From contig OY761611.1 of assembly GCA_963664875.1 (NCBI GenBank), forward strand, positions 1,952,001-2,016,000: a stretch of DNA of 64,000 bases. Reading direction: 5' to 3'. This document shows, piece after piece, positions 27,505 to 61,324 of the stretch. Numbering within the stretch: position 1 is the stretch's first letter; each line of letters opens with the position of its first letter. This stretch comes from Candidatus Kapaibacterium sp. Its GTDB lineage: Bacteria > Bacteroidota > Ignavibacteria > Kapaibacteriales > UBA2268. The position numbers and the translations under genes were made by a program. Under the pieces are notes generated by a model, which made no database searches, was not told the DNA's origin, and saw only the letters and a program-made list of their open reading frames with translations.

Positions 27505-27739
27505 AATTTGTCCGTAAAGTAATATAATTTATGCTCATAATAAAACTTAAAAATACAAAAAACTATTTACAAACAATACAAAAAGAATAATTCAATCCCG
27601 GCTGTGATATTAAATTGACCAATTTTAAAATTGATAGTAAAAATCTTAAACTAATTCGATTTCTATTTGTCTAATCTAAAGAAAACGGATTTTCAATATT
27701 CTATATTAAAATGTGGGTATAATCAAATTGGGGCACAAT

Positions 27740-45306: not shown

Positions 45307-45323
45307 TAAGCAGCTCCGAGATA

Positions 45324-46088
45324 CTATAATTTTATGAATTTTTTAGAAATCATCTTAGCGTTATTATCTATCAAAACAATATTATAAAATCCATTTTCCA
45401 AAGCAGAGATATCTATCATTTCTCCGTTGTACACCTGATTTAATACTTCGTTTCCTTTAGAATCGAATATTTTGTAATAACTTATATCAGAGGCAATTAT
45501 TTTAAGATAGTCCTGAGCAGGATTAGGATATAAAGCGATCGCATCATTTTGTACATCATCTATTACAGAAACAGGGTTCTTGAATACAAGTGTAATTTTA
45601 ATTCTTTTCCATGCACTGTTATTTAAGGTACATTGATCCTGAGCAAGCATATCATAATAAAATAGATTACCTGTAAGGTTATCTTTGATATACGCAGAAT
45701 CTAATCTTGCATTAGCAGGGATATTCCATTTGAGTGTAAGATCCTGAGCTCCAAATTGTGCATACATATTGTATTCTCTAACAAAAGCTTCGTTAGTATC
45801 TTCCTGTTTATAATCAATATAAGTATTCGTAGAGGCACCTTCAATATTTTTATCTGGCACTATAAAAAAGCACGCCAACTGCCCCCCTCTTCCAAGACCG
45901 GGATGTTCATATTCATTTAACGGAGGCTCTTCATCAATATAATCTGTAGCAGCAGGATCTACTCCAATAATCAGATTATTTTGTGTTTCACCGTTGCTGT
46001 TAGATGCTTCTATATTGATAGTATATTGTGCAAAAGAAATAGTCTGGGAAAAAACTACTAAAAATAATAATGTAAAAAGCTTATTCAT
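45324..46088 (-). CDS. T9SS type A sorting domain protein
   Basis: Signal peptide; IIGVDPAATDYID domain; CTD LYPNPAQD...LENGFY...KKFIKL. Confidence 0.85.
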   Translation of the reverse strand: MNKLFTLLFLVVFSQTISFAQYTINIEASNSNGETQNNLIIGVDPAATDYIDEEPPLNEYEHPGLGRGGQLACFFIVPDKNIEGASTNTYIDYKQEDTNEAFVREYNMYAQFGAQDLTLKWNIPANARLDSAYIKDNLTGNLFYYDMLAQDQCTLNNSAWKRIKITLVFKNPVSVIDDVQNDAIALYPNPAQDYLKIIASDISYYKIFDSKGNEVLNQVYNGEMIDISALENGFYNIVLIDNNAKMISKKFIKL

Positions 46089-46143
46089 GTTTATAGACCG
46101 ATTTATTGAAATAATGTTACTTACAAAAATAGATAAATTGTAT

Positions 46144-46176
46144 AAAAAAAGGCAACATTTCTGAAAAATGTTGCCT
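46144..46176 (-). terminator. Intrinsic terminator of the large T9SS operon
   Basis: aggcaacattt...aaatgttgcct with T7 tract on minus strand, just after the 46195 stop. Confidence 0.8.
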
Positions 46177-46194
46177 CTTTTTATTTGTTAGATC

Positions 46195-49100
46195 TTACTT
46201 AACAACAACAACTTTCAATACAGAATTGAAACCGTTTGCAGTAAGTTTGCAGATATAGCTACCTGAAGTCAATGCAGAAGCATTGAATTCGATAGTGTTA
46301 ATACCTGCATTAGCAGTCTGATTGTTTACTAAAGTCATTACTTCATTACCTAATTCATCGAATAATGCGATAGTTACATTTTCTTGAGCAGGCATGTTGT
46401 AAGAAATAGTAGCCATAGAAGTTACAGGGTTAGGACCTACTGTAAATTCAAATGTATTAACATCAGCTTCTACTTTAATAACTTTTACAGCGTCAGCAGC
46501 TGTTTCAGTAATTTCGATGTTTCCGTTTTCGCCTTTATTGATAAAGCCTAAAACGTCGTTAGTAGCAGCGTCAACAAATTGATAATCTGCATCAGCATAA
46601 GACATAGAAATTGAAACAGGATAAGTTACACCTTGCAAATTGATAACGCTTTCGTTTTTGTTAGATACATAAGTACCTTCTTCGAAACGTACGTCAAACA
46701 ATTCAACCATAGGCATAGGAGGCATTTGGAAAGTAGCAGTGCTAACATTGTTAGAAGCTAAGTACAATGAAGTATTGTGCTGAGCATTATCAACGATGTT
46801 TAACTGAGTGCTAGATGCCAAAACTGCTTCGTTATTGTTATAAGTAGCTTTACCAGTATAATTACCACCTTTAAGGTTCAAGAAACCGTTTTTGTCAGTT
46901 TTGATCCAGTAACCTCTGCCAGGTTCCATCATGTTTACAGCTACGTAACCATTTTCTAATGTGTATTTGTAAACATTGTGTTTCAAAGTAAATTCAGAAG
47001 TTGGTACTTCGCCATTGAATTCATCAAATTTGATATTAGAGATAGAAGTGTTCATTGTAGGACAGCCGATAGCGTTCCATCCACCTTTATCATCAGTATC
47101 GCCAGGATAAACTCTTACTTCGTAACCTTTGTCTCTAGAAATTTCATTAACAAACGCACCCGCAAATTTTGTATCTACAAGGTTGTTGTATTTTACAAAG
47201 TAACCATAACCAGGTTTAACGATGTCAGCTGGTTCCCACATATTGTAAGCCCAGTGCATTGGTTTAGTTACAGCATTTGGATATACGTTTTTGTATTCGT
47301 TGTTGATTGGGCTAACAGGTACAGATACCAAGTTCCAACCTTTAACGATAACAGGAGTACCATCAGCATTTACATAGTCAATAACTGAAGGAAGAGTATA
47401 TTCAATTAAGAACTCATTGATTTCAGGATCATTGATGTAGTATGTGCCTTTAGCAACTCTCATGTTAGTAGCTTCTTGTGGTACACCGTGCAATACTGAA
47501 CGGATGAATAACTGAGCACCAACCGGGAAGTCAGCAGCGTCCCAAGAAACAACTACAGGGTAGTTTTGTACGCCGTCAGCGTTAAATTTAACATTGTAGA
47601 TAATAGAGTTTACAGTGTCTTTAGAAGATCTGATATCTCTTGAAGCATACAAAGGAGCTTCCAAGTTTGGATTGATACATTCGAAACCGTAAGGGATCAA
47701 TGTTTCTAAAACAGGATCAACAGGGTAGAAACGAGCACCAAAACCAGACAATGGGTAATTGAAAGCTCTTTCGCCGAATAACAAGTCAACATTGTCAGTA
47801 GCTCTTGGAGCAGTACCGAATACTAATGAAGTCATGTCACCTGCAGAACCTCTTGAGTTACGTACATTTAATCTGATACCTGTGCCATTAGCAGCCAAAG
47901 TTGGTTCGTAAGGGCTACGGAAATAGATGAAAGTAACTTTAACTCTTACTGGAGAGATTTCAGCATTTTCTGATCTGATAGTTACATAACCGGTATAGAT
48001 ACCTTCTGATTCTTCAGCAGCACCTTTTACTTTGTTTTGATCGCAAACGATGTTGAAATATACTTTTTTATCAACAGGACCACTGATGTTCATAGGATCA
48101 GCCTGACCCATGATACCATTATCGATAAAGATACCATCTCTGAAAGTTTTAGAATCACCTTTTTTAGCTGATTCAACTTCTAACCATTCTTGGTCTGTTT
48201 CGATTCTGATATCTCTTAAACGAGTACCTGTAACTATATTTTGTAATTCTAAAACTAATTCACCTTTTGCATCTGATTCATCAGAAGCAGTAATTGGTTT
48301 AGTGATTACATAGAAAGCACCATTTTGTTCACCTTTGATTGGATCATCTTTTTCGTTGAAACCAATTTTAGGCAATTTATCCATAACACGGATATAAATA
48401 CTACCTTCTACTGTAGGCTCTGTCAACCAAAGCGGAGTCAAGCTGTTATTGATACCAGCCAAACCTGTTTTTTCAGTTGGATCCGGATAGTAGTTGATAA
48501 TTTGAGGATCTACAGCTCTGAATTCTTTGAAAGGAGCTTCTTTTCTAATGTTTAAACCATTGTAATTGATTTCCTGTCTGCCAATGTAGATAGGAGCAAT
48601 TTTTGTCAGCGGGTTAGTAGCATTAGGAATAACTCTAAAACGGATAAACATCAAAGGACGGAACTCAGGAGTTCTTGGGTCTTCGTTTACCGGTAATGAG
48701 TCAAAAGTATGTCCAACGATAGTAATTTTGTGACCATGTTTTTTGTTTTCAATACTTGCATTTGGCATGATGTCTTCCAAATAAGATTTATCAGGAACAT
48801 CATTAAAGTCAATTGAAAAACCATCTGCAGTACCGATTACTGGTTTACCTTCTTCAGTAGCATAATCAGCCAATTCAGGGATTGATGCAACTGTTTCGTA
48901 ACCTACGGCTCTAACCATAGTAGAGTCATAAAAGATATGGAATTTAAAATCTTTTATTGGTTCAGGATTTACCAAGTGGTGTCTATCTGCGAAAGGATGC
49001 CACTGATTGCTGATAAATATAGGCATCAAGAATTCTCTTGGCCCATTATCAGAAGGAGCAACCCAGATACGTCCATCAGGATATAATTCTGTATTATACG

Positions 49101-49248
49101 ACCCATCCGCACCGGTCAAAGAAAGAACCGGAATGGAAGGATTGTCAGCTTGAGCTTTTTCAAATGTTGCAAATGAAAAGCCCATGACTAGCATCAAGCC
49201 AAGAATCAACTTACTAGTCAACCCCTTTGCTTTAAAAGCTATTGTCAT
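46195..49248 (-). CDS. Large T9SS-secreted protein: cohesin-like, BACON-like, GWN-repeat and CTD modules
   Basis: Signal peptide; MPIFI...FKFHIFYDSTMV...PLMFIRFRV; TDQEWLEV...GIYTGYVTI; KGWNLVSVPV, GGWNAIG; CTD GPNPV...SGSY; ATG 49248 follows GGAGG. Confidence 0.85.
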   Translation of the reverse strand: MTIAFKAKGLTSKLILGLMLVMGFSFATFEKAQADNPSIPVLSLTGADGSYNTELYPDGRIWVAPSDNGPREFLMPIFISNQWHPFADRHHLVNPEPIKDFKFHIFYDSTMVRAVGYETVASIPELADYATEEGKPVIGTADGFSIDFNDVPDKSYLEDIMPNASIENKKHGHKITIVGHTFDSLPVNEDPRTPEFRPLMFIRFRVIPNATNPLTKIAPIYIGRQEINYNGLNIRKEAPFKEFRAVDPQIINYYPDPTEKTGLAGINNSLTPLWLTEPTVEGSIYIRVMDKLPKIGFNEKDDPIKGEQNGAFYVITKPITASDESDAKGELVLELQNIVTGTRLRDIRIETDQEWLEVESAKKGDSKTFRDGIFIDNGIMGQADPMNISGPVDKKVYFNIVCDQNKVKGAAEESEGIYTGYVTIRSENAEISPVRVKVTFIYFRSPYEPTLAANGTGIRLNVRNSRGSAGDMTSLVFGTAPRATDNVDLLFGERAFNYPLSGFGARFYPVDPVLETLIPYGFECINPNLEAPLYASRDIRSSKDTVNSIIYNVKFNADGVQNYPVVVSWDAADFPVGAQLFIRSVLHGVPQEATNMRVAKGTYYINDPEINEFLIEYTLPSVIDYVNADGTPVIVKGWNLVSVPVSPINNEYKNVYPNAVTKPMHWAYNMWEPADIVKPGYGYFVKYNNLVDTKFAGAFVNEISRDKGYEVRVYPGDTDDKGGWNAIGCPTMNTSISNIKFDEFNGEVPTSEFTLKHNVYKYTLENGYVAVNMMEPGRGYWIKTDKNGFLNLKGGNYTGKATYNNNEAVLASSTQLNIVDNAQHNTSLYLASNNVSTATFQMPPMPMVELFDVRFEEGTYVSNKNESVINLQGVTYPVSISMSYADADYQFVDAATNDVLGFINKGENGNIEITETAADAVKVIKVEADVNTFEFTVGPNPVTSMATISYNMPAQENVTIALFDELGNEVMTLVNNQTANAGINTIEFNASALTSGSYICKLTANGFNSVLKVVVVK

Positions 49249-49264
49249 TCTAACCTCCATTGAG

Positions 49265-50416
49265 TTATTTAATATTTAAATATCTTACTTTTGCAATTTT
49301 ATTTTGGGCTTTTATGACGACTAAATACAATCCAGCACTTTTATCGTCAAAGCTTATTATCTGTCTATCTTGATATTTTGTACAGTTTCCATTCAAATCA
49401 TATATCTCTATAATGTTATCTTGGTCTTTTACGATTATGCTGTTGTCGGCAATTTCGTAAACTGACTGTACATCTACATCTGTGACACTTGTAGTTCTGT
49501 TTGCAAAGACACACGTATCTTTTTCAAGAGTTTTGGCACAGTTACAGTCGTTTAAGTCTGCAATCTCTACCTCAATAGACTCATCATAGTTTTCGTTTAT
49601 CACTCTGTCTATTTCAAAATCTAAAAAGTACTCTTGAGTGTTTTCTTTTATATTTAGAACAATATCGTAACTGCTATCTGACTCTATTACATTTGCTATT
49701 TCGATGTCGCTGTTTTTTGCAGCAAAGTTTGAAAATAAGAATTTATCTGATTTTTGAAGTTTCAAAAGAAAATTGCTTACTTTTGCCTCTTCCGGAATAT
49801 CTAAAATCATAGTAGAATTTAGTTTTCCTGTTTCATCAAATTCTTTTTCTTCAGCATCAAAGCTAACTTTTGCATATCTGTTTTCACCTGATTTAACTTC
49901 TGATTCAATATAGAATGTTTTATTGGCAAAAGCAGGTATTTTACATTCGGATGTAAATGATAATTCTTCTACAACAAGGCTCGCAGAATCCGGACAATCT
50001 CCGATATAAGTAAACTGCAAAGCTATTAACGGCAAGTCTCCATAACTAGGAACATTTATATGTCCACTTAAGATGCCTGCATTTAACAATATATGATTAT
50101 CATCTATCACTTTTATACTAACTTTATCAAACCTCTCAGAAAGAGTATTTAAAGTGGCATAAGTATTACCAAAGTATAGTTTGGTATTATCATATTCCAT
50201 GTATAAAGTAATACCGAACAGTGAGTCAGATGGCTCTATAGTGCCTAAATCTAAATGTATAAGAACGTCTCTTTTGCTGTTTTGAAATACTATTCCGCAA
50301 GCATCAGCTTTTGACTTAGGAATTATTTCTAAGTTATAATCTTTTGCATTGCTCGGGATACTGCTCCAAAAGAGCAGTATTCCGATGCAAAATATATAAT
50401 AGCTGAGTTTACGCAT
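49265..50416 (-). CDS. Secreted cohesin-like domain protein with degenerate T9SS CTD
   Basis: Signal peptide; LFGITLYMEYDNTKL...GDLPLIALQF cohesin-like pattern; IYDLNG...GLYLV. Confidence 0.75.
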   Translation of the reverse strand: MRKLSYYIFCIGILLFWSSIPSNAKDYNLEIIPKSKADACGIVFQNSKRDVLIHLDLGTIEPSDSLFGITLYMEYDNTKLYFGNTYATLNTLSERFDKVSIKVIDDNHILLNAGILSGHINVPSYGDLPLIALQFTYIGDCPDSASLVVEELSFTSECKIPAFANKTFYIESEVKSGENRYAKVSFDAEEKEFDETGKLNSTMILDIPEEAKVSNFLLKLQKSDKFLFSNFAAKNSDIEIANVIESDSSYDIVLNIKENTQEYFLDFEIDRVINENYDESIEVEIADLNDCNCAKTLEKDTCVFANRTTSVTDVDVQSVYEIADNSIIVKDQDNIIEIYDLNGNCTKYQDRQIISFDDKSAGLYLVVIKAQNKIAKVRYLNIK

Positions 50417-50417
50417 A

Positions 50418-52307
50418 TTATTTGCTTAGAACTACTTTTTCTGTTACAGAAGTATCATTACCTGATAGTCTGATAATATATACACCATTTGCAACAGCAT
50501 TACCGTTGTCATCTTTACCGTCCCAAACGTATTCGCTACCGCTAATTGCAAATGATTTTACTTTGTTACCTAACATATCGTAGATAGCCAAGTTCATATC
50601 ATTTGTCAAATTAGCATTTAAGCTGAATATAGCATTTGAAGAGAATGGATTTTTAGACAACATTTTAATGCCTAATGTATAGTTTGAAGTTTCAACTTGA
50701 CTTACAGTTGAAGTCAAATCTGCTACTTCATTATCGTTCAATCTGATACCGCTTAATTTTACTTCTTTTTCATTTAAGCTAATTTCGATATCGCAAACTT
50801 TAGAATCTTTAGCTAAGTCTTGATTAGCACCAGCAATAACTACTCTGTTTTGAGTAAAGCTTACCATCAAATCTTTGTTAGCAAGTTTCACATCAGCTAC
50901 GTTAGCATTGATGTCAAATTTAGTACTAAAAGCACCTTTTACATCGCCATTAACATATACAGGAATAGTATAGTTACCGTTTTCAAGTTTAGTCATTGTA
51001 CCAAGAACTAAGTTAGTAGCTTGAACATCAACATCTACAGCTGATTTGCCTTTATAATCAATCGGATGTTTCCAAGGCAACTGAGAAATCTGACCACCTA
51101 AGTATTCTAATACATAAGCAGCATCATGTTCGTTACATTGGAATCTAATTTGTTTGATAGAAGCAATTGCTTCAGGTAAATCATCAGAGTATTTGTCAGA
51201 TTTTGCTTCAATTCTAACTTTGTTACCATCAACGTCGAAGTAGAAACGACCATCGTGAGTAACGTCGCCATGGTATGCTTGTCTTCTTCTTGCATCATCC
51301 AATGGTTGGTTAGTAGCTACAGATTTCATAATGATGCGAGCATCATTTATAGAAACGAATCTGTTTTGTGGCTGACCTTCGTGAATATTACCTACAGCTT
51401 TAGAGAAATCAACATCGCCATCGCCCCACCATTCTTCGATTTTGTTAGTAGCTTTAGCAATAAATTTGATTCTTGCATCAGATCTTTGACCTGAAGGCTG
51501 CCAGATATTAGTCAAGTCAGTTGTAGTTTTTTGAAGGTTGATGTCTTGATCGTACAACAAACCGTTCATATAGTCATCAGCTTCACCTTTGATACCAACT
51601 GAAGCGTCTTTGTAAACAACTACAGTATTTGGTGAGTTAGGGTTACCACCGATACCGCCGTAGCAAAATTCGATATCGCCTTGAGCAGAGTACAAAGAAG
51701 TTGATTTATAGATAATCAACTGGAAGTTTGCAACGCTTGAAGGTTGATTTTTATCGTTGATATTCAAATTTTTCCACTGAACGATAAATTTATCAGTTTC
51801 TTTCAAATAAGAAATTTCAGAAGCTAAGTAAGAATTTTTTTCATCCAAAACATTTCTGTAGTAGTGGTCACCCCAGAAAGGAGCCAATACGTTTACAGGA
51901 TATGAAGAAGATTCGATAAACAAAGCTTCTGCATCTACAGCAGGAACCATTGGAGGATCGATTCTAACGATCTGATTGTATTGGTTCTTTTCATATTTGC
52001 TGAATGTTACAAAGCCATTGACGTTGATAAATATTGAGTTATAGACTTCTCCATTATATTCGAAATCAAAACCCAAATCAACCTGATAGTAACCGTCGTC
52101 GTAGTCAACTTCATTTGCCGGAGGCAAAATGAACTCTTCGCGAGGTATAACGGTTTTCTCGTTATCATTTAGCTCTGCATATGGAACTCCGGTTATCAAT
52201 GTAGCAGGCTGAAACTCTGTCCATATTTGAGCTTGGAGATTTGGTGATACAGCTGTTAAACTTGCGATAGCGGCAAGTCCAACTGCAACCTTTTTAAATC
52301 TCTTCAT
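50418..52307 (-). CDS. T9SS-secreted NIDO-like / dockerin-like / cohesin-like protein
   Basis: DDG..VDLGFDFEYNG..INVNG..APFWGD..FQLII (NIDO-like); GDVD..VSINDA..GDVTHDG..DAAYVLEYLGG..LP (dockerin-like); CTD YDMLGNKV..WDGKDDNGNAVANGVY; ATG 52307 follows GGAG. Confidence 0.85.
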   Translation of the reverse strand: MKRFKKVAVGLAAIASLTAVSPNLQAQIWTEFQPATLITGVPYAELNDNEKTVIPREEFILPPANEVDYDDGYYQVDLGFDFEYNGEVYNSIFINVNGFVTFSKYEKNQYNQIVRIDPPMVPAVDAEALFIESSSYPVNVLAPFWGDHYYRNVLDEKNSYLASEISYLKETDKFIVQWKNLNINDKNQPSSVANFQLIIYKSTSLYSAQGDIEFCYGGIGGNPNSPNTVVVYKDASVGIKGEADDYMNGLLYDQDINLQKTTTDLTNIWQPSGQRSDARIKFIAKATNKIEEWWGDGDVDFSKAVGNIHEGQPQNRFVSINDARIIMKSVATNQPLDDARRRQAYHGDVTHDGRFYFDVDGNKVRIEAKSDKYSDDLPEAIASIKQIRFQCNEHDAAYVLEYLGGQISQLPWKHPIDYKGKSAVDVDVQATNLVLGTMTKLENGNYTIPVYVNGDVKGAFSTKFDINANVADVKLANKDLMVSFTQNRVVIAGANQDLAKDSKVCDIEISLNEKEVKLSGIRLNDNEVADLTSTVSQVETSNYTLGIKMLSKNPFSSNAIFSLNANLTNDMNLAIYDMLGNKVKSFAISGSEYVWDGKDDNGNAVANGVYIIRLSGNDTSVTEKVVLSK

Positions 52308-52355
52308 TGTTTTCTCCAATTTATTTATTAATCTCTTTTTCTATTTTTTAAGTAG

Positions 52356-52383
52356 GCAGGTCTTCAGTCTAAAGAAGACCTGC
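52356..52383 (-). other. Intergenic 10-bp stem-loop lacking a U-tract (candidate mRNA-stabilising/processing hairpin)
   Basis: gcaggtcttc/gaagacctgc; followed on minus strand by CTACTTAAAA rather than poly-T. Confidence 0.55.
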
Positions 52384-52396
52384 TATATTCTAAGTG

Positions 52397-55300
52397 TTAT
52401 TTTACTAAAACAACCGGCATAGAAGAAGAAACGTTACCTGCTTTCATTCTGATAGTGTAAGTTCCACTTACGATGCCTGAATTAGCTACTTTCCAGTCGA
52501 TTGTATGAGTACCGGCTTGGTAATTACCACTGTTAATTACTTCAACTACGTTACCTAATACATCGATCAATTCGAATGATACTGATTCACTTCTTGTCAA
52601 AGTAAATTCAATGTTAGCACTTGTTGTAACAGGGTTTGGACTTACTGAGTTCAAGCTTGTTACGAACATTTCGTTATCATCGATGCTCATAGCAGGATCA
52701 TAAACGATTACAAATTCTGTAAGAGCTAAGTCATTGATTGTAATAGTACATTCAGAACCGTTTTTCTCGAATTGAACTGTAGATACATGGTTGCCTTCAC
52801 CATCTTTCATGTTGAAAGAGTAGTAGTTACCATCTGTAGTCAATCTGTCTTTGATAAAGAACTGACCATCAGTTGGGATTTGGTCTGTATTCCATGCGAT
52901 AGTTACAGGAACTAATGGACCTGTAGCACCGTTTTCACCACCTGGTTGGAACTGACCATTGTATCTAAACAAACCATCTACGTTTGAAGGATAGATATTT
53001 CTAGCAACACCGTTAGTTGCAGGGATATCCCATCTTGCATCAAATGCGTCTAATGGCGGAATTGGAGCCAATTCAAATTCGCAATGTGTTTCATCGATAA
53101 TACCTACTTCTTTACCATCATCGCCATAACCTGTAGTTGCGTTTGCAGGAGCAGTACCGAAAGAAAGTACTTTTGCAGCGCCGATGCTATTTGTAATAGT
53201 CAAATCAGCAACGAAATCTGTAGGATCAGCAAGTCTGATAATGTAAGGGATAACCAATTCTTCACCATATTTATCAGTGATAACAATCAACAATCTTGCA
53301 GAAGATTTATCAATTGGATCTCTGTCTAGATCTAAGTTAGAAGCTGTGATTTCGATATCTTGTTCTTCGTTGATAGGACCAACTAAAGAAGAAGGGCTAA
53401 ATGTAAATTTGCTAGTAATTTTTTGACCTTTAGTCCAATCTGCCTGAGCATAATAGATATCGATAGTCAATTCTTCTTCGTGTCCATCTATGTTACGTAA
53501 CAAGTCTCTGTCGCTGATAGTGATTTCATCTCTGAAGTTACCACCAAGATCAGCACAAATTACTTCTTGTTGAGCTACATAGTTTGGAGCGTGGTTAAGT
53601 GAGTCAACTTGTAACTGCAATACTTTAATTGTTGGAAGACCTTCTTCGTCTCTTACTACTACAAATACAGGGTCTGTTTTTGGAGCATCAAGTACGCCAG
53701 GTGTACCGAACAACAAGCCTGATTTAGGATTGATTTTCAACCAAGCAGGAGTTGCATAAGTCAAGTCAGCAACATTGAAGCCTGCAGCTGTCAATTCATC
53801 TTTAACATTCCAAGCACCTGCTTCAGGGAAACAAGGATCTTTTGGTATGTCTGCAGCATTGATGTCATAAACTAATTCGAATTCGTGTGTTTGATCGAAG
53901 TTAGCATCTTTTACATGAATCATTCTATTAGAGTCAAGTAGGTCGATGTTGTAATCTTCGTCTTCTTTAGCATTGTCTAATGCTTCAGTGATGATTTCAG
54001 GAGCGATATTGATAAGTACTTTGTACTGTTGCAATGCCATAGCACCATGACCATCATTAACAACGATATTTACGATTGTGTCTAAGTTTAATGCACCATT
54101 AACTGATTTAGAATCAGCTTTAGCTGTAAGCAATTCGATAGCTTCTGCTCTGTCGATGCGGATGTTCAATTGACCTTTGCTAGTGAATAGCAAGCCATTA
54201 ACATCAGGAATAGTAGCATCGTCGAAAGTCATCATATATTCCGGAGCCAACCATTTAGGAGCGATTCTATTGATCATAGAAATGCCACTTGGGTCGTAAC
54301 CGTCACTATCAAAATCAACTGCTAATGTATCAAGGTCAATTACGTTACCGTCGTTATCATAAGCTACGTGTTGGAAGCCGTAAGCTGTTTTACCATAAGG
54401 GAACGTCCAAGGAGTTCTACCTGCAGCTACGTCATGAGCAAGAGCCCATTGGTCTTCGTTTTCATCGTTAGTGTTAACGTCGATTTGGAAACGCAATTTA
54501 TCTGTTAAGTTAGCTTTCAACTGACCGTCATCAGTAATATCGCAAGCTGACAATGAAGGAGTGTATTCAACCCAAGTTTTAGTTGTACCTTGAGCATCTG
54601 TTCTGATTTCAACTACTTCTTTAGCTGCATCTACTGCTGCCTGATCTCTCATATCTACGAAATCTGCAAATTGAGGAACAGAGTCAACAACGATAAGTTT
54701 GAAAGTGTAAGAACGTTTGTAGTTAGTACCAAAGTTGATAGTATCTTGTTGCAAGAATCTTGCATTATCAGTATCGTATTTTTCTGCATGGAAATATTCA
54801 GGATAAGTTTCGATATACTTATCTATTTCGTTTAAGTCAAAGTTAGGATCATGTGCTAACAATGAATCAAGTACTCTGTAGTGAGGAGGGAAGTTAGAAA
54901 CTGTAACAGTTACATCTTCACCGCCAGGTACTACAAATGGGTTCAACGGACGACCACGGAAGATCATGTAACCATTTGCAGAATCAGCAACAGAAGGAAC
55001 ATTGATATTTGCAATGTCAGTAGTAGTTCTGTAAACTTTATCAAACATCAACCAACGAGAAACTGCTGTGTTAGGATCAACATTCCAATCGTAGAACAAT
55101 TCAGAATATTGGTCACCAGCGATTTCAGATCTTGGATCGATAAATTTGTTTAAGTCTTTTGCAGTAATTTTTACGATTACGTTATTGTTGTTGTTACCTA
55201 ATTCATAAAGATGATCTTCAAGAACAAATTTAGTGTTCAAGAATTCTTCAACTTGAATTGTGTCTGGTCTGTTAGGAATATCAGAACCTGCAAGGTATTC

Positions 55301-58300
55301 AGGAACTTCAGTTTGCAATTTAACAACATCACCTGTAAACACTGGAGGATTTGTAGATTCAGAGATACCGAATTTCAAACCATCTTCCATAGCTTTTACA
55401 ACACCTTCTCTCCACAATACTGTACGAGAAACGATTCTGATTGTATCGCCAACGTTTACCGGAAGTGCTTTATATCTTTCACCAGCGAAGTACGCTTGGT
55501 TACCATCGTTAGAAGCAGGCATATCAGGTCTGTTGCTATAGATTTTAGCAAAGTCACCTAAGTTATAGTTATTGATTGCTTCTAATACAGAGTATTTACG
55601 ACCTTGAAGAGCAGCGCCATCTTCATTATAAGGATTGCGAGCTAATTTTTCAAGTAAAGGCTGACCAGAACCTAAGTTCATCAAACCTTCTTCGTTACGA
55701 CGGAACAAGAATTTGTTATTTCTGTTTGTAGAGTCAGGAACCAATTCAACTCTTGCACGGAATACTTCTTTGTTAGCACCGGCTTCAGCAACCTGTTTCA
55801 TGTTAACGCGGATGTAGTCAGTAGTAGTTTCATTGATTACAAAGAATACTGTTTCGTTTACAACGTTTGTGTCGTGGTTAGATCTTTCAATCATACCATC
55901 GTAATCAACCATAGATTCTAAGAACATTGGGTATCCGATTGGATGAGAATCTTCTTTGAAGTCTGTGATTAATTTAGAAACGATTGCATCATCTTCCATA
56001 TAAGGATCGCGAGTCATACGACGAACATATTTACCGTCGAATACTTCACCTGCAGCAGCATATCTATCTACAACAGGAGCGATACCAACTGCGAAGTCTT
56101 CAATTGGAGACATTCTGCGGTTAGAATAGTCAGCAGTTTTGATGTCAGTACCTTTGTCATATACGTCATAAACGCGACCTGACATAAGTAATGTTTCTTT
56201 GATTGAATTAGTACCAGGTAAAGTAACGTCATTAACGTCATTTACTAATGGTATTGGAGTATAGTTATATTTGTTGTAAGATTCAAATGGACCTTGTTCT
56301 CTTGGATCAGCCAAAGTAGTTGGATCAGCAGCATACATAGTTTTCATATGAGTTTCGCCGTCACCTTCGATGTAGAATGTTTCGAAACGTGCGTTAGCGA
56401 TACCGCCACCAGCATTTGGCAATTCAAAGATAATGTTTGCTTGAGTTTCACCCCAGTAGTTACCGCGCAATGTGTCAGTACCACCGGAACCGATACCTGT
56501 AATACCAGCCAATAAGCCTTTAGTATTAGGAGCATCCGGTAATCTTACAAAGAAGCGAGCGCTGTTATCATAAACAGAGTTAGCTGCTTCAGAGTAAATG
56601 TAAGAAGGTAGTGGACCTTGAACTTCACCATAAATAGTAGTAGAAGCCAAATCGCTTGAAGCTAAGTTTTTAGGGTTAGAGTTAGGATTGAAAGGACCAT
56701 CGATTGTGTTTTGTTCCCAACCGTATTGGTTTCTTGCATCTACATCATTACCTGCAATAAGAGATCTATTGAAGATAAGTTTCAAATCGTAGTTGTCAGA
56801 GTAAACAGCTGAACCAGTAAATGATTTGTTACCAACCATTCTTACGCGGTTAAAGTTTACAGAGTCAATTCTACCAATTCTGTTTTGAGTTACTGAGTCA
56901 AGGATGTACAATGCACCGCCAAGACCAACGCCATTTTCAGGAAGCATCACTTCTTGGTGATAACGAGTAACATCAGTGAAGCCTTCGTCAGCTGGTTTAA
57001 CAGAAGTCCATTCAGTAGCGCCGTTTGTAAGTACAAGACCGGCATCACCTACTACAAAACCTTTGTTAGGAGCTGAGAAGAAGATATCAGCAAAAGAATA
57101 TTTAGCATATTTGTTTTCAACTTTTTCTTCAGTCCAAGTCAAACCACCGTCAACTGATTTGAAGAAAGTACCAAACTGACCAACCATATAGCCTGTAGTC
57201 TGAGCAACAAAGTAAACTTTATTGATAGTGTGAGTAGCAGGGCTATTAGGATTGATTACCCAGTTATCGCCTTTGTTAGCAGTAGTCATCATGATACCGC
57301 CTTCACCTACAGCGTAACCGTCGTTAGGATTTTTGAAGAATACAGATTTCAAGTTTTGAGTAACGCCGGCAACTGTTCTTAAGATCCAGTCTTGGCCACC
57401 GTTAGTAGTTTTCAACATAGTACCACGATCACCAACAATGAAACCATTGTTAAGACCATCGTTGAAATCTACAGCATTCAAATGAGCAGTAACAGGTTGA
57501 GTTGAAGTCCAAGTCTGACCTGCATCAGTTGTTTTCAAGATATAACCATTATCGCAAGCAGCAACAGCTACGTTAGTACCAATAAATTTAACATCATTGA
57601 TTTTAGCTGAAACAGGAGTAGTCATTTTTACCCAAGTTTTACCTGCGTTTGTAGTTTTCAATACAGTACCGCGGTCACCAACTACATAACCTGTTTGGTA
57701 GTCAGTAAAGTGAACGTCAGTAAGTCTGTAGTTAGTACCTGAAGTCAAGTATTCCCAGTTTGCACCACCGTTAGTAAATTTAACGATAAGACCACCCATA
57801 CCAACGCCATAACCAATGTTGTTATCCAACCAGTTAGTAGCGATAATATTGTTAGTAGTTACTTGAGTACCTTGATTAACTTGAGTAGCACCTGAGCCAG
57901 TTTGAGAAGCAAGAATATTATCATCAACGATAATTTCGTTGTTGTAGAATCTTGTCAACATTCTAACATCAGGAGGGAAGTTTTCAGAGTCATAAGTAAA
58001 TACATCATTGTATGAGTTGTAAGAAACAGGCATACCGTACATGTCATACTGAACATCATCAACGTCAGTGATAAAGAAACGTTTAGAAGAAGTTTCAGGA
58101 TTAACCATACAGATTGCACCACCGTTACCGTTATAAACAGTATTGTGAGCAAACTCAACACCTTTAACTAAAGTAAGGTCAGCGTTAAGAGCATAAATAG
58201 CACCGCCACCTCTGATTTCAGGTTTGTTAGCATCAACAGTAATGTCTTTACCAACAGTGTTGCCTAAGAAAGAAGCTCTTACAAATGAGCAAGCTCTTTC

Positions 58301-60397
58301 GTGAGCAGGAAGAACAGGATATGCATTAGGTATTCTCAAATCGATAGCACCACCAGCATAACCGGCTTTGTTATTTTCAAAGATTACAGGGTAATTACCG
58401 CCATAACCGATAATTTCTTTAGAAGCTACACCACCGGCGCCATTTACAGACATTGCTCTTTTAGAGAATACTGCACCACCGAAAGTTTGAGCTACGTTAT
58501 CTTTAAATTTGATATTGAAACCATAATCTCTTGTAAGCAATGAAGCATCAGAACCACCGATTACAGGTGATTTCATGTGGTCAACATTACCATCAACAAA
58601 AATCGCACCGCCAGCACCAGCTTCGTTACCTTGGAATAAAGTAGCGTTATTGATTGCATCGCGAGCAGGACCACCAACTACTTGCAAACGACCGATTGTA
58701 TTTGCATGGAACACAGCACCACCCATAGAGAAGTAACCGCTGTTAGAACCTGCAACATCGTCTTGCAAGAATTTAGTGTAAGTTTTGTTGAATTTGAATT
58801 CACCGGCTAAGATCATAGAAGTGTAATCACCAACGTACAAAGCACCACCACGTGCACCGTAAGTAGAGCCTGAGCTTTGGAAGTTACGAGCTTCGTTACC
58901 TTCAGCAACAAATTCGTCAGCATCAGCAAAAGTAATCAAATTACCATGAGCATCTTTTATAGTATTGTTTATACCAAAACCAACTTCAATCTGGCGAGGA
59001 TTAGCACCGTAGAAACCGGCAACATAAATCGCACCACCGAAAGCGTGGTTACCATATTTTTGTGGGTAATTAGCAGGGTTGTCAGTATCGTCAACAACTA
59101 CGTCAACGCCACCGATTTTTTTAACAACAACATTAGCTAATTGAGCTTTGTTACCTGAGAAAGTAAGATTACGCATACGACCTAAGTAAAGAGCAACGCG
59201 AGCGTCGTCCCATGCTTGACGATCGAAATCTGTAGCAAATGGTTCCTGAACATCACTATCTATATTATCAATAGCAGGAACAGGATTATTTCTGATGATT
59301 TCAGAAATTTCGCCTTGAGCATTTACAATCTGAGGGTTTTTGTCAGAAGCATAAGTAGGCAATGAAGTAACATTTTTAGGGTAACCTTCTGGAGCTTGCA
59401 AAATCTGCAATGCACCACCGCGGTTACGAGACATGTTATTTACAAATTCGCAATTCAACAACCAAGTTCTTGAAGACAAAGTAGTGATAACACCACCGCC
59501 ACCATTAGTTAGAGTGCGAATTTTTTCATTCATTTCAGCAGTTTTAGCGCCGAATTCATTACCATTATAAATAGGGTCTCTATCTACAGTAGTGTCTTTT
59601 TTGAAACCTTCGAAACGTACGTTTCTAAAGAATGCAGCTCTTGCACCTGGAAGAACCACGATGTGACCCCATTCTCTTGAAGCGTTATTTACAGGTTGAC
59701 CGATGAAGTTGATTTGTTCAGCTTCAACAGCAACATCTGCACCACTAACTCTTTTCCAAGGTTGAGTGTTTAGAAGGATGTCGATTTTAGGATCAAACTG
59801 CAAACGAGCGTTTTTGAACATTAACGCTTGTTCGAAAGGAACGATGAATTTGTGAGGACCAACCACGTCATTTGCTCTGTGGTTTGCATCAATCATCTGG
59901 AAGTCTTCGATTTTTCTGTTTAGAGTATCGACAACAACATTGAAAACAGTGTTGTATTTAGATGTATGAACAGACAAATCGCGAGTAGTATTTACATCAA
60001 CTGTTTTAGTGTCAGATGTATATCCTAAACCACGAGTGAAATAAGCCATATCAGCATAGCCGGTATAGCCGGAACCGGGAGCGATAGGGTTAACACCATC
60101 CGGTGCTTTAATGTAATTAGCAACAGCTTCGCCATCGGCGATGATTCTACCACCAACTGAGTCAATTAGTCTTGAGTTAGGGTAGAAGTAAACTGTTGTA
60201 CCCGGCTCGATAATCAAAGACCCGCCAACTACGTAATTCTTATCGATTACGTAAACGGTATCTTTTTGGAACAACCTTACATCCCCGGGTGCTATTCGAC
60301 CGGAAACGTAAGCTTGCGGTTTTTGAGCCATAGCCTGTCCAAACGAGAGGACACAGAGTAATACAGCTAAAAAGCTCAAACGAATCAATCGTTGCAT
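52397..60397 (-). CDS. Giant (2666 aa) T9SS-secreted protein: Pmp-like beta-helix, YCF48-type propeller, Ig/cadherin-like domains, CTD
   Basis: Signal peptide, GGAGG RBS; repeated FxxN...GGA(I/L/V); ~7 G(Y/F)xVGxxG.xLKTTxGGxxW blades; TPAWLKINPKSGLLFGTP; CTD SPNPV...SGTY. Confidence 0.9.
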   Translation of the reverse strand: MQRLIRLSFLAVLLCVLSFGQAMAQKPQAYVSGRIAPGDVRLFQKDTVYVIDKNYVVGGSLIIEPGTTVYFYPNSRLIDSVGGRIIADGEAVANYIKAPDGVNPIAPGSGYTGYADMAYFTRGLGYTSDTKTVDVNTTRDLSVHTSKYNTVFNVVVDTLNRKIEDFQMIDANHRANDVVGPHKFIVPFEQALMFKNARLQFDPKIDILLNTQPWKRVSGADVAVEAEQINFIGQPVNNASREWGHIVVLPGARAAFFRNVRFEGFKKDTTVDRDPIYNGNEFGAKTAEMNEKIRTLTNGGGGVITTLSSRTWLLNCEFVNNMSRNRGGALQILQAPEGYPKNVTSLPTYASDKNPQIVNAQGEISEIIRNNPVPAIDNIDSDVQEPFATDFDRQAWDDARVALYLGRMRNLTFSGNKAQLANVVVKKIGGVDVVVDDTDNPANYPQKYGNHAFGGAIYVAGFYGANPRQIEVGFGINNTIKDAHGNLITFADADEFVAEGNEARNFQSSGSTYGARGGALYVGDYTSMILAGEFKFNKTYTKFLQDDVAGSNSGYFSMGGAVFHANTIGRLQVVGGPARDAINNATLFQGNEAGAGGAIFVDGNVDHMKSPVIGGSDASLLTRDYGFNIKFKDNVAQTFGGAVFSKRAMSVNGAGGVASKEIIGYGGNYPVIFENNKAGYAGGAIDLRIPNAYPVLPAHERACSFVRASFLGNTVGKDITVDANKPEIRGGGAIYALNADLTLVKGVEFAHNTVYNGNGGAICMVNPETSSKRFFITDVDDVQYDMYGMPVSYNSYNDVFTYDSENFPPDVRMLTRFYNNEIIVDDNILASQTGSGATQVNQGTQVTTNNIIATNWLDNNIGYGVGMGGLIVKFTNGGANWEYLTSGTNYRLTDVHFTDYQTGYVVGDRGTVLKTTNAGKTWVKMTTPVSAKINDVKFIGTNVAVAACDNGYILKTTDAGQTWTSTQPVTAHLNAVDFNDGLNNGFIVGDRGTMLKTTNGGQDWILRTVAGVTQNLKSVFFKNPNDGYAVGEGGIMMTTANKGDNWVINPNSPATHTINKVYFVAQTTGYMVGQFGTFFKSVDGGLTWTEEKVENKYAKYSFADIFFSAPNKGFVVGDAGLVLTNGATEWTSVKPADEGFTDVTRYHQEVMLPENGVGLGGALYILDSVTQNRIGRIDSVNFNRVRMVGNKSFTGSAVYSDNYDLKLIFNRSLIAGNDVDARNQYGWEQNTIDGPFNPNSNPKNLASSDLASTTIYGEVQGPLPSYIYSEAANSVYDNSARFFVRLPDAPNTKGLLAGITGIGSGGTDTLRGNYWGETQANIIFELPNAGGGIANARFETFYIEGDGETHMKTMYAADPTTLADPREQGPFESYNKYNYTPIPLVNDVNDVTLPGTNSIKETLLMSGRVYDVYDKGTDIKTADYSNRRMSPIEDFAVGIAPVVDRYAAAGEVFDGKYVRRMTRDPYMEDDAIVSKLITDFKEDSHPIGYPMFLESMVDYDGMIERSNHDTNVVNETVFFVINETTTDYIRVNMKQVAEAGANKEVFRARVELVPDSTNRNNKFLFRRNEEGLMNLGSGQPLLEKLARNPYNEDGAALQGRKYSVLEAINNYNLGDFAKIYSNRPDMPASNDGNQAYFAGERYKALPVNVGDTIRIVSRTVLWREGVVKAMEDGLKFGISESTNPPVFTGDVVKLQTEVPEYLAGSDIPNRPDTIQVEEFLNTKFVLEDHLYELGNNNNNVIVKITAKDLNKFIDPRSEIAGDQYSELFYDWNVDPNTAVSRWLMFDKVYRTTTDIANINVPSVADSANGYMIFRGRPLNPFVVPGGEDVTVTVSNFPPHYRVLDSLLAHDPNFDLNEIDKYIETYPEYFHAEKYDTDNARFLQQDTINFGTNYKRSYTFKLIVVDSVPQFADFVDMRDQAAVDAAKEVVEIRTDAQGTTKTWVEYTPSLSACDITDDGQLKANLTDKLRFQIDVNTNDENEDQWALAHDVAAGRTPWTFPYGKTAYGFQHVAYDNDGNVIDLDTLAVDFDSDGYDPSGISMINRIAPKWLAPEYMMTFDDATIPDVNGLLFTSKGQLNIRIDRAEAIELLTAKADSKSVNGALNLDTIVNIVVNDGHGAMALQQYKVLINIAPEIITEALDNAKEDEDYNIDLLDSNRMIHVKDANFDQTHEFELVYDINAADIPKDPCFPEAGAWNVKDELTAAGFNVADLTYATPAWLKINPKSGLLFGTPGVLDAPKTDPVFVVVRDEEGLPTIKVLQLQVDSLNHAPNYVAQQEVICADLGGNFRDEITISDRDLLRNIDGHEEELTIDIYYAQADWTKGQKITSKFTFSPSSLVGPINEEQDIEITASNLDLDRDPIDKSSARLLIVITDKYGEELVIPYIIRLADPTDFVADLTITNSIGAAKVLSFGTAPANATTGYGDDGKEVGIIDETHCEFELAPIPPLDAFDARWDIPATNGVARNIYPSNVDGLFRYNGQFQPGGENGATGPLVPVTIAWNTDQIPTDGQFFIKDRLTTDGNYYSFNMKDGEGNHVSTVQFEKNGSECTITINDLALTEFVIVYDPAMSIDDNEMFVTSLNSVSPNPVTTSANIEFTLTRSESVSFELIDVLGNVVEVINSGNYQAGTHTIDWKVANSGIVSGTYTIRMKAGNVSSSMPVVLVK

Positions 60398-60492: not shown

Positions 60493-61221
60493 TTACTCAA
60501 TTTTCATGCCAAGACGTGCCAAGCCTGATTTAGCAAGCGTTGTAAACTCGTTCTGATATGTATCGGCAACTATCTGATTATAAAGCTCTTCAGCTTTTTT
60601 TGTATCTTTTGCCACTTCAAATAATTTACCTGCATAATATTTATATCTGAATTCTGTATTTTTTTGCACTGCTAATTGGCTTGCCTGAAGGTATAAATCC
60701 GCTGCTTCAAGAGCTTTTCCTTCTTTTTCCCTGCATGCTCCCATACCGGCTAAAGCACCCATTTTCAACACGTTAGACTCACTTTCGCCAGCCATATCAA
60801 AAAATTTTGCAGCTTCTGCCAATTTGTTTTGTACCAAATAAGCGTTTGCTGCATACAATGCTGCCTGCATACCCTGATCAGTACCTGAGTACTGCTCAGC
60901 CACTTCCGGAAGACTCATGATAGGCATTCCGTCGATTTTTATAGACTTATCGCCATTGAGTGCTTTGTCGTATTCGCCGTTAAAATAATAAGCCTGAATA
61001 CGGGATAGAGCCACAGATGCTTCGTTAATCTCTTCTTCTTTCTGGGAGTTAACGAAATATCCGACTAATAAAACTACTAATAGACCGGCAGCTCCTGCCA
61101 AGATATAACGACCATATTTCTTTACTTTTTCCATTATGTCTTCATGGTCGTCTATCAAAATCTCGTTCTCAACCTGAATCATAGGTTCTTGATTGAGCTC
61201 TTCTTGGTTTTTCATTATCAA
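60493..61221 (-). CDS. Membrane-anchored TPR protein (YfgM-like)
   Basis: Single N-terminal TM, TPR-like helices, QYSGTDQG..AALY. Confidence 0.8.
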   Translation of the reverse strand: MIMKNQEELNQEPMIQVENEILIDDHEDIMEKVKKYGRYILAGAAGLLVVLLVGYFVNSQKEEEINEASVALSRIQAYYFNGEYDKALNGDKSIKIDGMPIMSLPEVAEQYSGTDQGMQAALYAANAYLVQNKLAEAAKFFDMAGESESNVLKMGALAGMGACREKEGKALEAADLYLQASQLAVQKNTEFRYKYYAGKLFEVAKDTKKAEELYNQIVADTYQNEFTTLAKSGLARLGMKIE

Positions 61222-61250
61222 CCTTTCTTCTATATTTTTAAAATACTTAG

Positions 61251-61324
61251 CACGCCCGAAGGGATTCGAACCCCCAACCTCTGGAACCGGAATCCAACAC
61301 TCTATCCAGTTGAGCTACGGGCGT
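61251..61324 (-). tRNA. tRNA-Arg(CCG)
   Basis: ACGCCCG acceptor stem, TAGCTCAACTGGATAGAG D-arm, anticodon loop TTCCGGT, GGTTCGAATCC T-arm; CCA not encoded. Confidence 0.95.

Follow-up and report, generated by a model that had tools for sequence, protein, structure and literature searches.

A syntenic gene set with cohesin-like and dockerin-like modules and type IX secretion tails in the Kapaibacteriales, a nonenzymatic relative of noncellulosomal cohesin-dockerin systems

The cohesin-dockerin pair is known from textbooks as the module pair that holds cellulosomes together, and many copies of the two modules are also found outside cellulosomes, where, to our knowledge, almost none has an assigned role. 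Here, we analyzed a stretch of 64,000 nucleotides from the genome of a Candidatus Kapaibacterium sp. (assembly GCA_963664875.1, contig OY761611.1, positions 1,952,001 to 2,016,000 of the forward strand; the whole stretch is called the window below, and positions are counted from its first letter), with a focus on a cluster of five co-oriented open reading frames (ORFs) on the minus strand, P1 to P5, of 2666, 633/629, 383, 1021/1017, and 254 amino acids (aa). An initial annotation, made from the letters and their translations, had read these genes as a candidate noncellulolytic cohesin-dockerin surface complex secreted through a type IX secretion system (T9SS). Judged by profile-profile comparison, the module homology is real for P3 and P4, which carry a cohesin and a cohesin-like module, and probable for P2, in which a dockerin-like module precedes a cohesin-like one. 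We read the cluster as a new nonenzymatic, T9SS-linked variant of noncellulosomal cohesin-dockerin systems. The reading that we prefer, and to which we give slightly better than even credence, is that of a nonenzymatic T9SS surface assembly with fixed stoichiometry, connected through the P2 dockerin and the P3/P4 cohesins and through a further shared domain that we call X.

Among the closest described systems, the cellulosomal type I pairs (Acetivibrio cellulolyticus ScaB Coh6-Cel5 Doc, 5nrk; Clostridium thermocellum OlpC 4dh2, 1ohz) have cohesins with the same predicted fold as P3, and their dockerins share the duplicated Ca-loop-plus-helix pattern with P2. In contrast to these pairs, the five proteins include no repeated-cohesin scaffoldin, no dockerin-bearing enzymes, and no carbohydrate-binding module (CBM); the host is diderm, with export and anchoring assigned to T9SS C-terminal domains (CTDs) rather than to S-layer homology (SLH) domains or sortase; and the cluster sequences are too divergent for Pfam, with inserts of ~16 and ~36 residues that interrupt the two Ca loops of the P2 dockerin and are absent from canonical dockerins. 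Noncellulosomal cohesins (Clostridium perfringens GH84C/GH33 2w1n, 2vo8, 2o4e; Archaeoglobus fulgidus 2xdh) display the fold outside the cellulosome, as P3 is predicted to do, with one or few modules per protein, and 2w1n and 2vo8 are the best domain-level matches of the P2 sandwich. However, the clostridial noncellulosomal cohesins join glycoside hydrolases (GHs), whereas no enzyme is present here and the modules belong to an order-wide syntenic, multi-gene set that would be secreted by T9SS. In other families of the phylum, Dockerin-Cohesin-CTD proteins have the module order of P2, and Cohesin-CTD proteins that of P3; the P2 profile aligns to the former across the end of the dockerin and the cohesin. 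These proteins score above Pfam thresholds, have other N-terminal parts (Beta_helix/NosD, BACON), and lie outside the P1-P5 gene set. Finally, a report on Ca. Stygibacter, of the Cloacimonadota, proposes a cellulosome-like complex in which dockerin-bearing enzymes join a cohesin protein that has a T9SS-type CTD (PMC8542988). Shared with our cluster are the cohesin protein that carries a T9SS-type CTD for attachment to the surface of the cell that makes it and the presence of dockerin partners; the Ca. Stygibacter scaffoldin of 3,755 aa has tandem cohesins and CBMs and recruits GH18, GH57, and peptidases, whereas P1-P5 lack enzymes and tandem cohesins and have just one dockerin.

The initial annotation had recognized no glycoside hydrolase or protease motif, and a Pfam scan of the five proteins agrees, as it returned neither a GH nor a CBM nor a peptidase family at E ≤ 1. 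The modules of P2, P3, and P4 each occur once in the genome, and Dockerin_1 gives five matches genome-wide at E ≤ 10, one of them above the cut-off. On these grounds, an identity as a cellulosome was rejected. The same observations, together with the lack of tandem cohesins in the five proteins and the flanking genes, which encode envelope glycosyltransferases and are not carbohydrate-active enzyme loci, speak against a polymer-degrading complex in which enzymes encoded elsewhere would dock on the cluster cohesins. This possibility draws on Ca. Stygibacter, where cohesins and dockerins combined with a T9SS CTD have been read in that way (PMC8542988); for the present locus, we judge it extremely unlikely.

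For the comparison of modules, we assembled reference profiles from segments with scores above the Pfam cut-offs, 30 for cohesin and 30 for dockerin, all from other genomes of the same phylum, and aligned them with hhalign to alignments of the cut-out cluster modules. As decoys, 25 block-shuffled alignments per module and reversed alignments were scored in the same way, and all remained below the real scores; control domains of the cluster proteins reached 0.1-8.5% against the cohesin profile. P3, which is built from a cohesin, a pilin/macroglobulin-like sandwich, and a CTD (from N- to C-terminus), aligned over residues 28-175 to the 30 cohesins at 96.7% (E 4e-10, 102 columns), with a score of 61.9 versus 27.0 for its best decoy, and its full-length profile still reached 94.0%. 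A hidden Markov model (HMM) of the P3 domain in turn matched Pfam-scoring cohesins among 460 ORFs (E 6.1e-14 and 4.4e-11). It gave 15 domain matches, 11 of which coincide with listed Pfam cohesin matches. The AlphaFold model of P3 has a mean predicted local distance difference test (pLDDT) value of 90.9. When its residues 22-177 were compared with 48,161 representative chains of the PDB using VIA-align, ranks 1-12 were all taken by cohesins (Z 13.4-12.0, root-mean-square deviation (rmsd) 2.6-3.1, 128-146 residues aligned), among them 5nrk_A (Z 13.4, rmsd 2.7, 137/143 aligned), 4dh2_C (Z 13.1), 1ohz_A (Z 12.2), and the noncellulosomal 2vo8 (Z 12.1) and 2xdh (Z 12.0), while the next unrelated folds followed at about Z 9. 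The predicted structure of P3 22-177 is therefore that of a cohesin-type nine-stranded jelly-roll and not a generic immunoglobulin fold, the objection that the initial annotation had itself raised against its cohesin call. In line with this call, its motif LYMEYDNTKL...PLIALQF is present, on strands that are aligned to the cohesin consensus. The Pfam Cohesin model recognizes 4 of 60 P3 homologs at E ≤ 1 (best E 0.003).

The second sandwich of P3 (residues 178-309) aligned to the cohesin profile at just 8.5%, and its best structural matches were the BcpA pilin and the receptor-binding domain of alpha-2-macroglobulin (both Z 10.0 with VIA-align). P3 is the fastest-evolving member of the cluster, with 20-30% identity, and its size and architecture are kept in 124 representatives. 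Four cysteines stand out: in the CxC at the end of the second sandwich, C291 is nearly invariant and C293 invariant, and in the cohesin, C40 is invariant and its counterpart C141 nearly so. That these residues are kept although the rest of the protein evolves fast points to disulfides or to the binding of a metal.

P4 consists of a cohesin-like module, an intervening segment, the X domain, a further segment, and a CTD. Its cohesin call is borne out by alignment of residues 38-300 to the real cohesins at 95.2% (E 2.7e-8, 99 columns, with the insert of the module skipped) and a score of 57.2 versus 29.5 for the best decoy; the full-length P4 profile reached 92.7%. The P4 HMM gave three weak matches, all within Pfam cohesins, and a PDB profile search with P4 ranked the cohesin 4dh2 second, on the FKxxYDS motif, at a nonsignificant E of 0.57. 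The motif from which P4 had been called, FHIFYDSTMV...PLMFIRF, is present and again lies on strands aligned to the cohesin consensus.

P2 runs from a NIDO-like domain through a dockerin-like and a cohesin-like module to a CTD, and was modeled at a mean pLDDT of 82.5. Each of the two segments of its dockerin-like module combines a Ca loop with a helix, following the pattern D300-x-D302-x-D304...D326 in segment 1 and D352-x-N/T354-x-D/N356-G357...D399 in segment 2. Across 48 homologs, D300, D302, D304, and D326 are invariant in the first segment and D352, G357, and D399 in the second, where N354 is nearly invariant (P2 itself has T354) and position 356 is D or N. D326 opens helix 1 and D399 opens the last helix of the module. 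Residues 292-425 aligned to the 30 Pfam-scoring dockerins at 89.0% (E 2.3e-6, 61 columns), in an alignment that places the 36-residue insert within loop 2; the score was 36.8 versus 24.4 for the best decoy, and other cluster modules gave 0.1% against the dockerin profile. In the model of this module (pLDDT 53-87), helices span residues 324-336, 347-351, and 397-407, and a hairpin spans 358-369; the helices are predicted where a dockerin would have them. Of all parts of the cluster, the dockerin-like module is the best conserved, with a mean distance of 0.61 versus 1.2-1.8 for the cohesin modules.

The neighboring cohesin-like module of P2 (residues 426-548) aligned to the cohesin profile at 57.9% (E 1e-4, 98 columns), with a score of 30.8 versus 20.7 for the best decoy. 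An HMM of residues 292-548, from which the CTD was excluded, matched five of the 460 ORFs (E 9.4e-9 to 3.8e-5); these are ~1750-1790 aa long, and the alignment spans the end of their Pfam Dockerin_1 domain and their Pfam Cohesin domain. Fold searches with the 633-residue P2 model covered residues 431-633. With VIA-align, the sandwich at 431-545 matched 2w1n_A (Z 9.5, rmsd 3.0, 107 aligned) and 2vo8_A (Z 9.4), with eight further cohesins at Z 7.8-8.4 and with other sandwiches interleaved among them, and the top Foldseek match of P2 was the 2w1n cohesin-FN3 construct (E 2e-8). The profile match to Dockerin-Cohesin ORFs supports the initially proposed order, dockerin-like and then cohesin-like. 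Going by these sequence profiles, we consider both homologies in P2 probable, with moderate support for the dockerin and with a cohesin-like module that is borderline when taken by itself. The NIDO assignment of the initial annotation was borne out weakly (Pfam E 0.011 for P2; 10 of 48 homologs matched, best E 4.4e-5).

The remaining proteins, P1 and P5, are connected to P4 by the X domain, of ~150 aa. From N- to C-terminus, P1 consists of a signal peptide, a Pmp-type beta-helix, a Ycf48-like propeller, a long middle part, X, and the CTD. Both the Pmp repeat (Pfam Chlam_PMP, E 3.7e-9 at residues 670-685; NCBIfam POMP_repeat at 583-605, E 0.1) and the propeller had been read correctly beforehand, and residues 847-1124 match Ycf48-like proteins of the PDB at E 1.6e-18. 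For BACON, which had also been read into the cluster, none of P1-P5 gave a match at E ≤ 1. The relation of P5 to the cluster, which the initial annotation had noticed, lies in its N-terminal domain: aligned with hhalign, the family of this domain matches the P1 family at 97.6% (E 3e-12, 142 columns) and the P4 family at 97.8% (E 8.6e-13, 138 columns), the matching parts being P1 2396-2575 and P4 462-621. The P4 copy was found by hmmsearch of the own genome (E 6.6e-6). This relation appears only with profiles, BLASTP of P5 against P4 and P1 being nonsignificant. In the own genome, X was found in P1, P4, and P5 only, plus one weak match elsewhere.

All five proteins open with a signal-peptide-like sequence, as judged by eye, in agreement with the initial annotation, which had further assigned a T9SS CTD to every one of them. 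We used the NCBIfam model TIGR04183, with a cut-off of 23 bits, and its Pfam counterpart Por_Secre_tail (PF18962). The assignment stood for P1, P2, P4, and P5 (Table 1); P3 alone fell below the cut-off and is positive at the family level, as Por_Secre_tail matches 49 of 60 P3 homologs and the P3 family profile matches the solved T9SS CTD 8glk_D (E 7.4e-7). The CTD of P2 resembles the solved CTDs of PorU (Z 10.8) and PorZ (Z 10.4) in VIA-align; an identity of P4 or P2 as PorU/PorZ was rejected, because the similarity is confined to the CTDs. The own genome encodes the SprA translocon (786 bits) and gives at least 150 CTD matches, so that five neighboring CTD genes are unremarkable by themselves; the kept synteny, and not the clustering of CTDs, is what exceeds chance. 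Elsewhere in the genome, there are tandem arrays of 4-6 CTD-protein genes, mostly of ~440-510 aa and with near-identical CTD scores (for example, G000:C1:1823039-1827665, 2200500-2206002, 925089-931146, and 1109256-1116040), which look like paralog families of T9SS cargo.

Adhesins of the SprB type travel as T9SS cargo, and accessory genes are transcribed together with theirs. P1, which is giant and repetitive, combines a beta-helix with a propeller, and has a CTD, could likewise be the mobile adhesin of a SprB/RemA-like motility or adhesion apparatus, with P2-P5 as loading or anchoring accessories and the cohesin and dockerin as mere connectors; the accessory genes that follow P1 in the operon and the presence of SprA fit such an arrangement. 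We think this very unlikely, given that neither Pfam nor NCBIfam showed any gliding-protein similarity in P1-P5, and that P1, unlike typical variable adhesins, is well conserved from end to end (41-52% identity within the group). The GldM model found nothing in the genome, but it found no match in any control genome either and so says little.

The initial annotation had named a lack of synteny in relatives among the findings that would refute it; the genes proved to be syntenic. We collected 80 loci around P2 homologs from bacterial species genomes, mostly labeled Kapaibacterium, Kapabacteria, Ignavibacteria, or Chlorobiota. In these 80 loci, tblastn found P1 in 79, P4 in 76 (five of which are CTD-only cross-matches in short loci), P3 in 67, and P5 in 34; among the neighboring genes, g242, upstream of P1, was found in 69, and the three genes downstream of P5, here called GT2, GT9, and g260, in 53, 51, and 49, respectively. 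ORF maps show that order and sizes are kept wherever the contig is long enough, the ORFs from g242 to P5 measuring ~240, 2200-3090, ~630, 364-414, 1015-1136, and 240-304 aa. Even under a strict filter for size and spacing, the complete P1-P4 quartet was recovered in its order in 60 of the 80 loci. Identity across relatives is ~35-50% for P1, P2, and P4. In addition, among 301 evenly sampled genomes of the phylum, full-length P2 orthologs occurred in 16 of the 17 others that belong to the order and in a single additional genome. The genes thus form an operon-like unit that is kept by the whole order.

In the assembly that we prefer, T9SS would export P1-P5, and their CTDs would hold them on the outer surface. 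After export, the P2 dockerin would plug into the cohesin of P3 and/or P4 in a Ca2+-dependent manner, and the X domains would tie P1, P4, and P5 together. The product would be a defined hetero-oligomer of fixed stoichiometry rather than an enzyme-recruiting cellulosome, and the giant beta-helix/propeller protein P1 would be its exposed working part, serving as an adhesin or as a structural coat. Surface anchoring, the cohesin partner of the dockerin, the role of the X domain, and the biological role are points that we infer. With one dockerin for three cohesin-like modules, and neither of the two in P1, the cluster does not follow a design of one scaffoldin plus many cargo proteins.

Several observations weigh against this assembly. 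The Pfam models Cohesin (PF00963) and Dockerin_1 (PF00404), named in the initial annotation as targets for its check, match none of the five proteins at E ≤ 1, whereas the profile-profile comparison described above was positive; likewise, when the own genome was scanned in six frames, neither model matched within the region, and the Pfam families listed for 46 P4 and 48 P2 homologs include neither. PDB profile searches with the P2, P3, and P4 families returned no significant cohesin or dockerin, only CTD and FlgD matches, and the three cohesin-like modules are mutually undetectable with hhalign (all ≤2.7%). As for P2, its full-length profile drops to 25.9% (plus 4.6%) for the dockerin and to 12.5% for the cohesin, dockerin residues 300-320 are modeled at low confidence (pLDDT 53-57), and non-cohesin sandwiches score about equally for residues 431-545 (Z 8.5-9.2). 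P1, the largest protein, is without cohesin or dockerin, and its attachment would therefore depend on the X domain alone. The presence of one dockerin next to three cohesin-like modules allows more than one wiring, and other weak dockerins and cohesins in the genome could be the real partners. Lastly, the assembled RNA contigs described below can neither demonstrate a single transcript nor rule out DNA carry-over.

Further searches gave results of the same kind. With NCBIfam, neither module was recognized in any of P1-P5, and a 33-sequence alignment of the P1 family aligned to the cohesin and dockerin profiles at 0.2% each. HMMs built from real cohesins and dockerins remained below threshold, at the right positions, in P4 (E 0.43), P3 (E 2.1), and P2 (E 5.9 and 8.4). 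Between whole-family alignments, hhalign aligned only the CTDs, and every pair of cut-out modules aligned to each other stayed at ≤10.6%. Three of the five cluster proteins have no family above the Pfam cut-off other than the secretion tail.

In the phylum at large, recognizable cohesins and dockerins are frequent: at E ≤ 1e-5, Pfam cohesin matches occur in 74 and dockerin matches in 81 of the 301 genomes. A Pfam-level dockerin and cohesin are very often adjacent in one T9SS-CTD protein, in either order, and small Cohesin-CTD proteins adjoin such proteins (for example, loci L149-L151; genomes G028, G109, and G173). Among them are a 919-aa protein with Dockerin_1 at 618-665, Cohesin at 703-811, and the CTD at 836-916; a 1772-aa beta-helix protein with Dockerin_1, then a cohesin (seen in the six-frame scan), and then the CTD; and a BACON-Cohesin-Dockerin-CTD protein with a 244-aa Cohesin-CTD protein beside it. 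No description of this recurring Dockerin-Cohesin-CTD cassette, nor of the P1-P5 locus, was found in the literature searched, which did not cover subscription journals. According to a study on rumen Bacteroidetes, cohesins and dockerins are absent from Bacteroidetes genomes (PMC5831590), and a rumen survey assigns a minority of dockerins to Bacteroidetes and cites Peer et al. 2009 on noncellulosomal modules (PMC6487960). Since cohesins or dockerins next to a T9SS CTD are common in the phylum, and a complex with this combination has been proposed in Cloacimonadota (PMC8542988), the combination is less unprecedented than the initial annotation had implied.

The cassette could also be a polymerization device, in which the dockerin of one P2 would insert into the cohesin of the next, head to tail, while P3/P4 would cap the chain or anchor it to the outer membrane and the X domain would hang P1 and P5 on the resulting lattice. 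This is a speculative idea that we consider quite unlikely.

The own genome holds further candidate modules as well. A six-frame scan with Pfam Cohesin gave three matches, including E 1.4e-4 and 0.0017, and dockerin candidates were found in a 2124-aa ORF (E 1.1e-4), a 492-aa ORF (E 0.0047), and a 2320-aa ORF (E 0.019). The 492-aa ORF, which lies outside the window (Table 1), is a candidate outside partner of the cluster cohesins. Its dockerin (Pfam E 0.0047) has two segments split by a long insert; ORFs of similar size, 466, 477, and 499 aa, in three related genomes match Dockerin_1 at E 3.5e-8, 1.7e-7, and 4.1e-6. Within the window, a 1046-aa CTD protein (27710-30847, plus strand; genome 1979710-1982847) touches Dockerin_1 at a nonsignificant E of 0.97, probably by chance.

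Such outside candidates, the 492-aa cohesin-like/dockerin/CTD-like protein included, leave room for a reading in which there is no single complex: P1-P5 would be co-regulated but separate, their partners might be encoded elsewhere, or the P2 dockerin might clasp the cohesin-like module of its own polypeptide. Self-interaction of this kind would fit the frequent adjacency of dockerin and cohesin in one polypeptide in the phylum, and the presence of a single dockerin for three cohesin-like modules points in the same direction. On the other hand, an order-level group has preserved the sequence of the genes, their spacing, and their sizes, as would be unusual if the surface proteins were unrelated, and the modules and the X domain are specific to the cluster within the genome. 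A mirror-tree comparison adds a lead: among the cohesins, the residual correlation of the P2 dockerin is highest with that of P3 (0.43), compared with 0.12 for P4 and -0.11 for its own, and it reaches 0.41 with the middle part of P1; the underlying distances are rough and non-independent, and the values carry no statistical weight. We hold the reading without a single complex to be unlikely, if still a serious contender to the assembly that we prefer.

The layout of the cluster is compact (Table 1). ORF coordinates confirm the co-oriented four-gene block and the additional 254-aa gene of the initial annotation, with gaps of 77, 1, and 4 bases between P1 and P2, P2 and P3, and P3 and P4. The closest homologs of P2 have the 629-aa length that corresponds to its ATG start. 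The terminator that had been placed after P4 is real as well, its T-run following on the minus strand too, and P5 sits just past it. P1-P4 are covered at 90-99% identity by metatranscriptome contigs from four libraries, which belong to three studies and come from wastewater, sediment, and outdoor samples; some of the contigs bridge the P1/P2 junction (X8 51577-53263, X16 51900-52400, and X19 51999-52540). They do not cover 45000-46107 (P5) and cover almost none of g242, and assembled contigs cannot prove absence. We take these contigs as a hint of P1-P4 expression.

Directly upstream of P1 lies g242, whose similarity to TPR_21 (E 1e-4) is below the Pfam cut-off. It is the first gene after a tRNA-Arg(CCG) gene that lies directly ahead of it, so the surface-protein unit begins right behind this tRNA gene, at which loose ends of the metatranscriptome contigs accumulate. 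Beyond the tRNA follows a gene for a 709-aa protein that unites E1 alpha and E1 beta of a 2-oxoacid dehydrogenase in a single polypeptide, and that is kept at 60-94% identity in the 40 of the 80 related loci that reach that far. On the other side, downstream of P5, are GT2, an ArnC-like polyprenyl-phosphate glycosyltransferase; g260, a 260-aa signal-peptide protein that resembles an outer-membrane beta-barrel and has no family match; and GT9, which is heptosyltransferase-like. The three genes are kept directly downstream of P5 in ~50 of the 80 loci, and a link to the lipopolysaccharide anchor of T9SS cargo is possible.

Table 1. Positions of the cluster genes, their predicted modules, and neighboring features in the window (the 492-aa ORF is given in genome coordinates)
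Feature	Positions	Strand	Details
P1	52397..60397	-	2666 aa
P1 Pmp repeats	58343..58651	-	residues 583-685, in beta-helix region
P1 Ycf48/BNR-like propeller	57011..57859	-	residues 847-1129; Pfam PSII_BNR E 7e-32
P1 X domain	52673..53212	-	residues 2396-2575, just before CTD
P1 CTD	52400..52645	-	TIGR04183 29.4 bits; Por_Secre_tail 31.2 bits
P2	50418..52319	-	633 aa from TTG; 629 from ATG at residue 5
P2 NIDO-like beta domain	51447..52232	-	residues 30-291; modeled at pLDDT ~90
P2 dockerin-like module	51072..51428	-	residues 298-416; two Ca-loop-plus-helix segments
P2 cohesin-like sandwich	50685..51029	-	residues 431-545, between dockerin and CTD
P2 CTD	50421..50675	-	TIGR04183 33.4 bits
P3	49265..50416	-	383 aa
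P3 cohesin module	49886..50353	-	residues 22-177
P3 second beta-sandwich	49490..49885	-	residues 178-309, ends in CxC
P3 CTD	49268..49459	-	TIGR04183 19.9 bits, below cut-off
P4	46195..49260	-	1021 aa; 1017 from M5
P4 cohesin-like module	48613..49071	-	about residues 64-216; ~50-residue insert
P4 X domain	47398..47877	-	residues 462-621
P4 CTD	46198..46437	-	TIGR04183 37.8 bits; Pfam 40.5 bits
P5	45324..46088	-	254 aa
P5 X domain	45588-46019	-	about residues 24-167; then CTD
P5 CTD	45327-45533	-	residues 186-254; TIGR04183 32.0 bits
Hairpin terminator	46150..46176	.	11-bp stem, T-runs on both strands, after P4
g242	60493..61221	-	242 aa, one N-terminal transmembrane helix (by eye), TPR_21 (YfgM-like)
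tRNA-Arg (anticodon CCG)	61250-61324	-	between fused E1 dehydrogenase gene and g242
Fused E1 dehydrogenase	61486-63615	-	709 aa; E1_dh + Transket_pyr + Transketolase_C
Three envelope genes downstream of P5	42422-45306	-	GT2 ArnC-like, 260-aa protein, GT9
492-aa ORF (L005)	G000:C1:1581923-1583398, outside window	+	cohesin-like N-domain, dockerin, CTD-like end

Taken together, the combination of one dockerin, three cohesin-type modules, no enzymes, T9SS, and near-universal occurrence in the order argues for a structural or adhesive role of the connector in diderms. If the head-to-tail polymerization of P2 were true, the product would be a surface layer or filament built by T9SS, near-universal in one order of Bacteroidota and with canonical cousins across the phylum, and it would represent a structural, enzyme-free use of the cellulosome connector in diderms. 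Because standard Pfam annotation misses the modules of P2-P4 entirely, the use of cohesins and dockerins in Bacteroidota may be under-counted. The locus provides a concrete, testable case of a noncellulosomal cohesin-dockerin system in an uncultured order.

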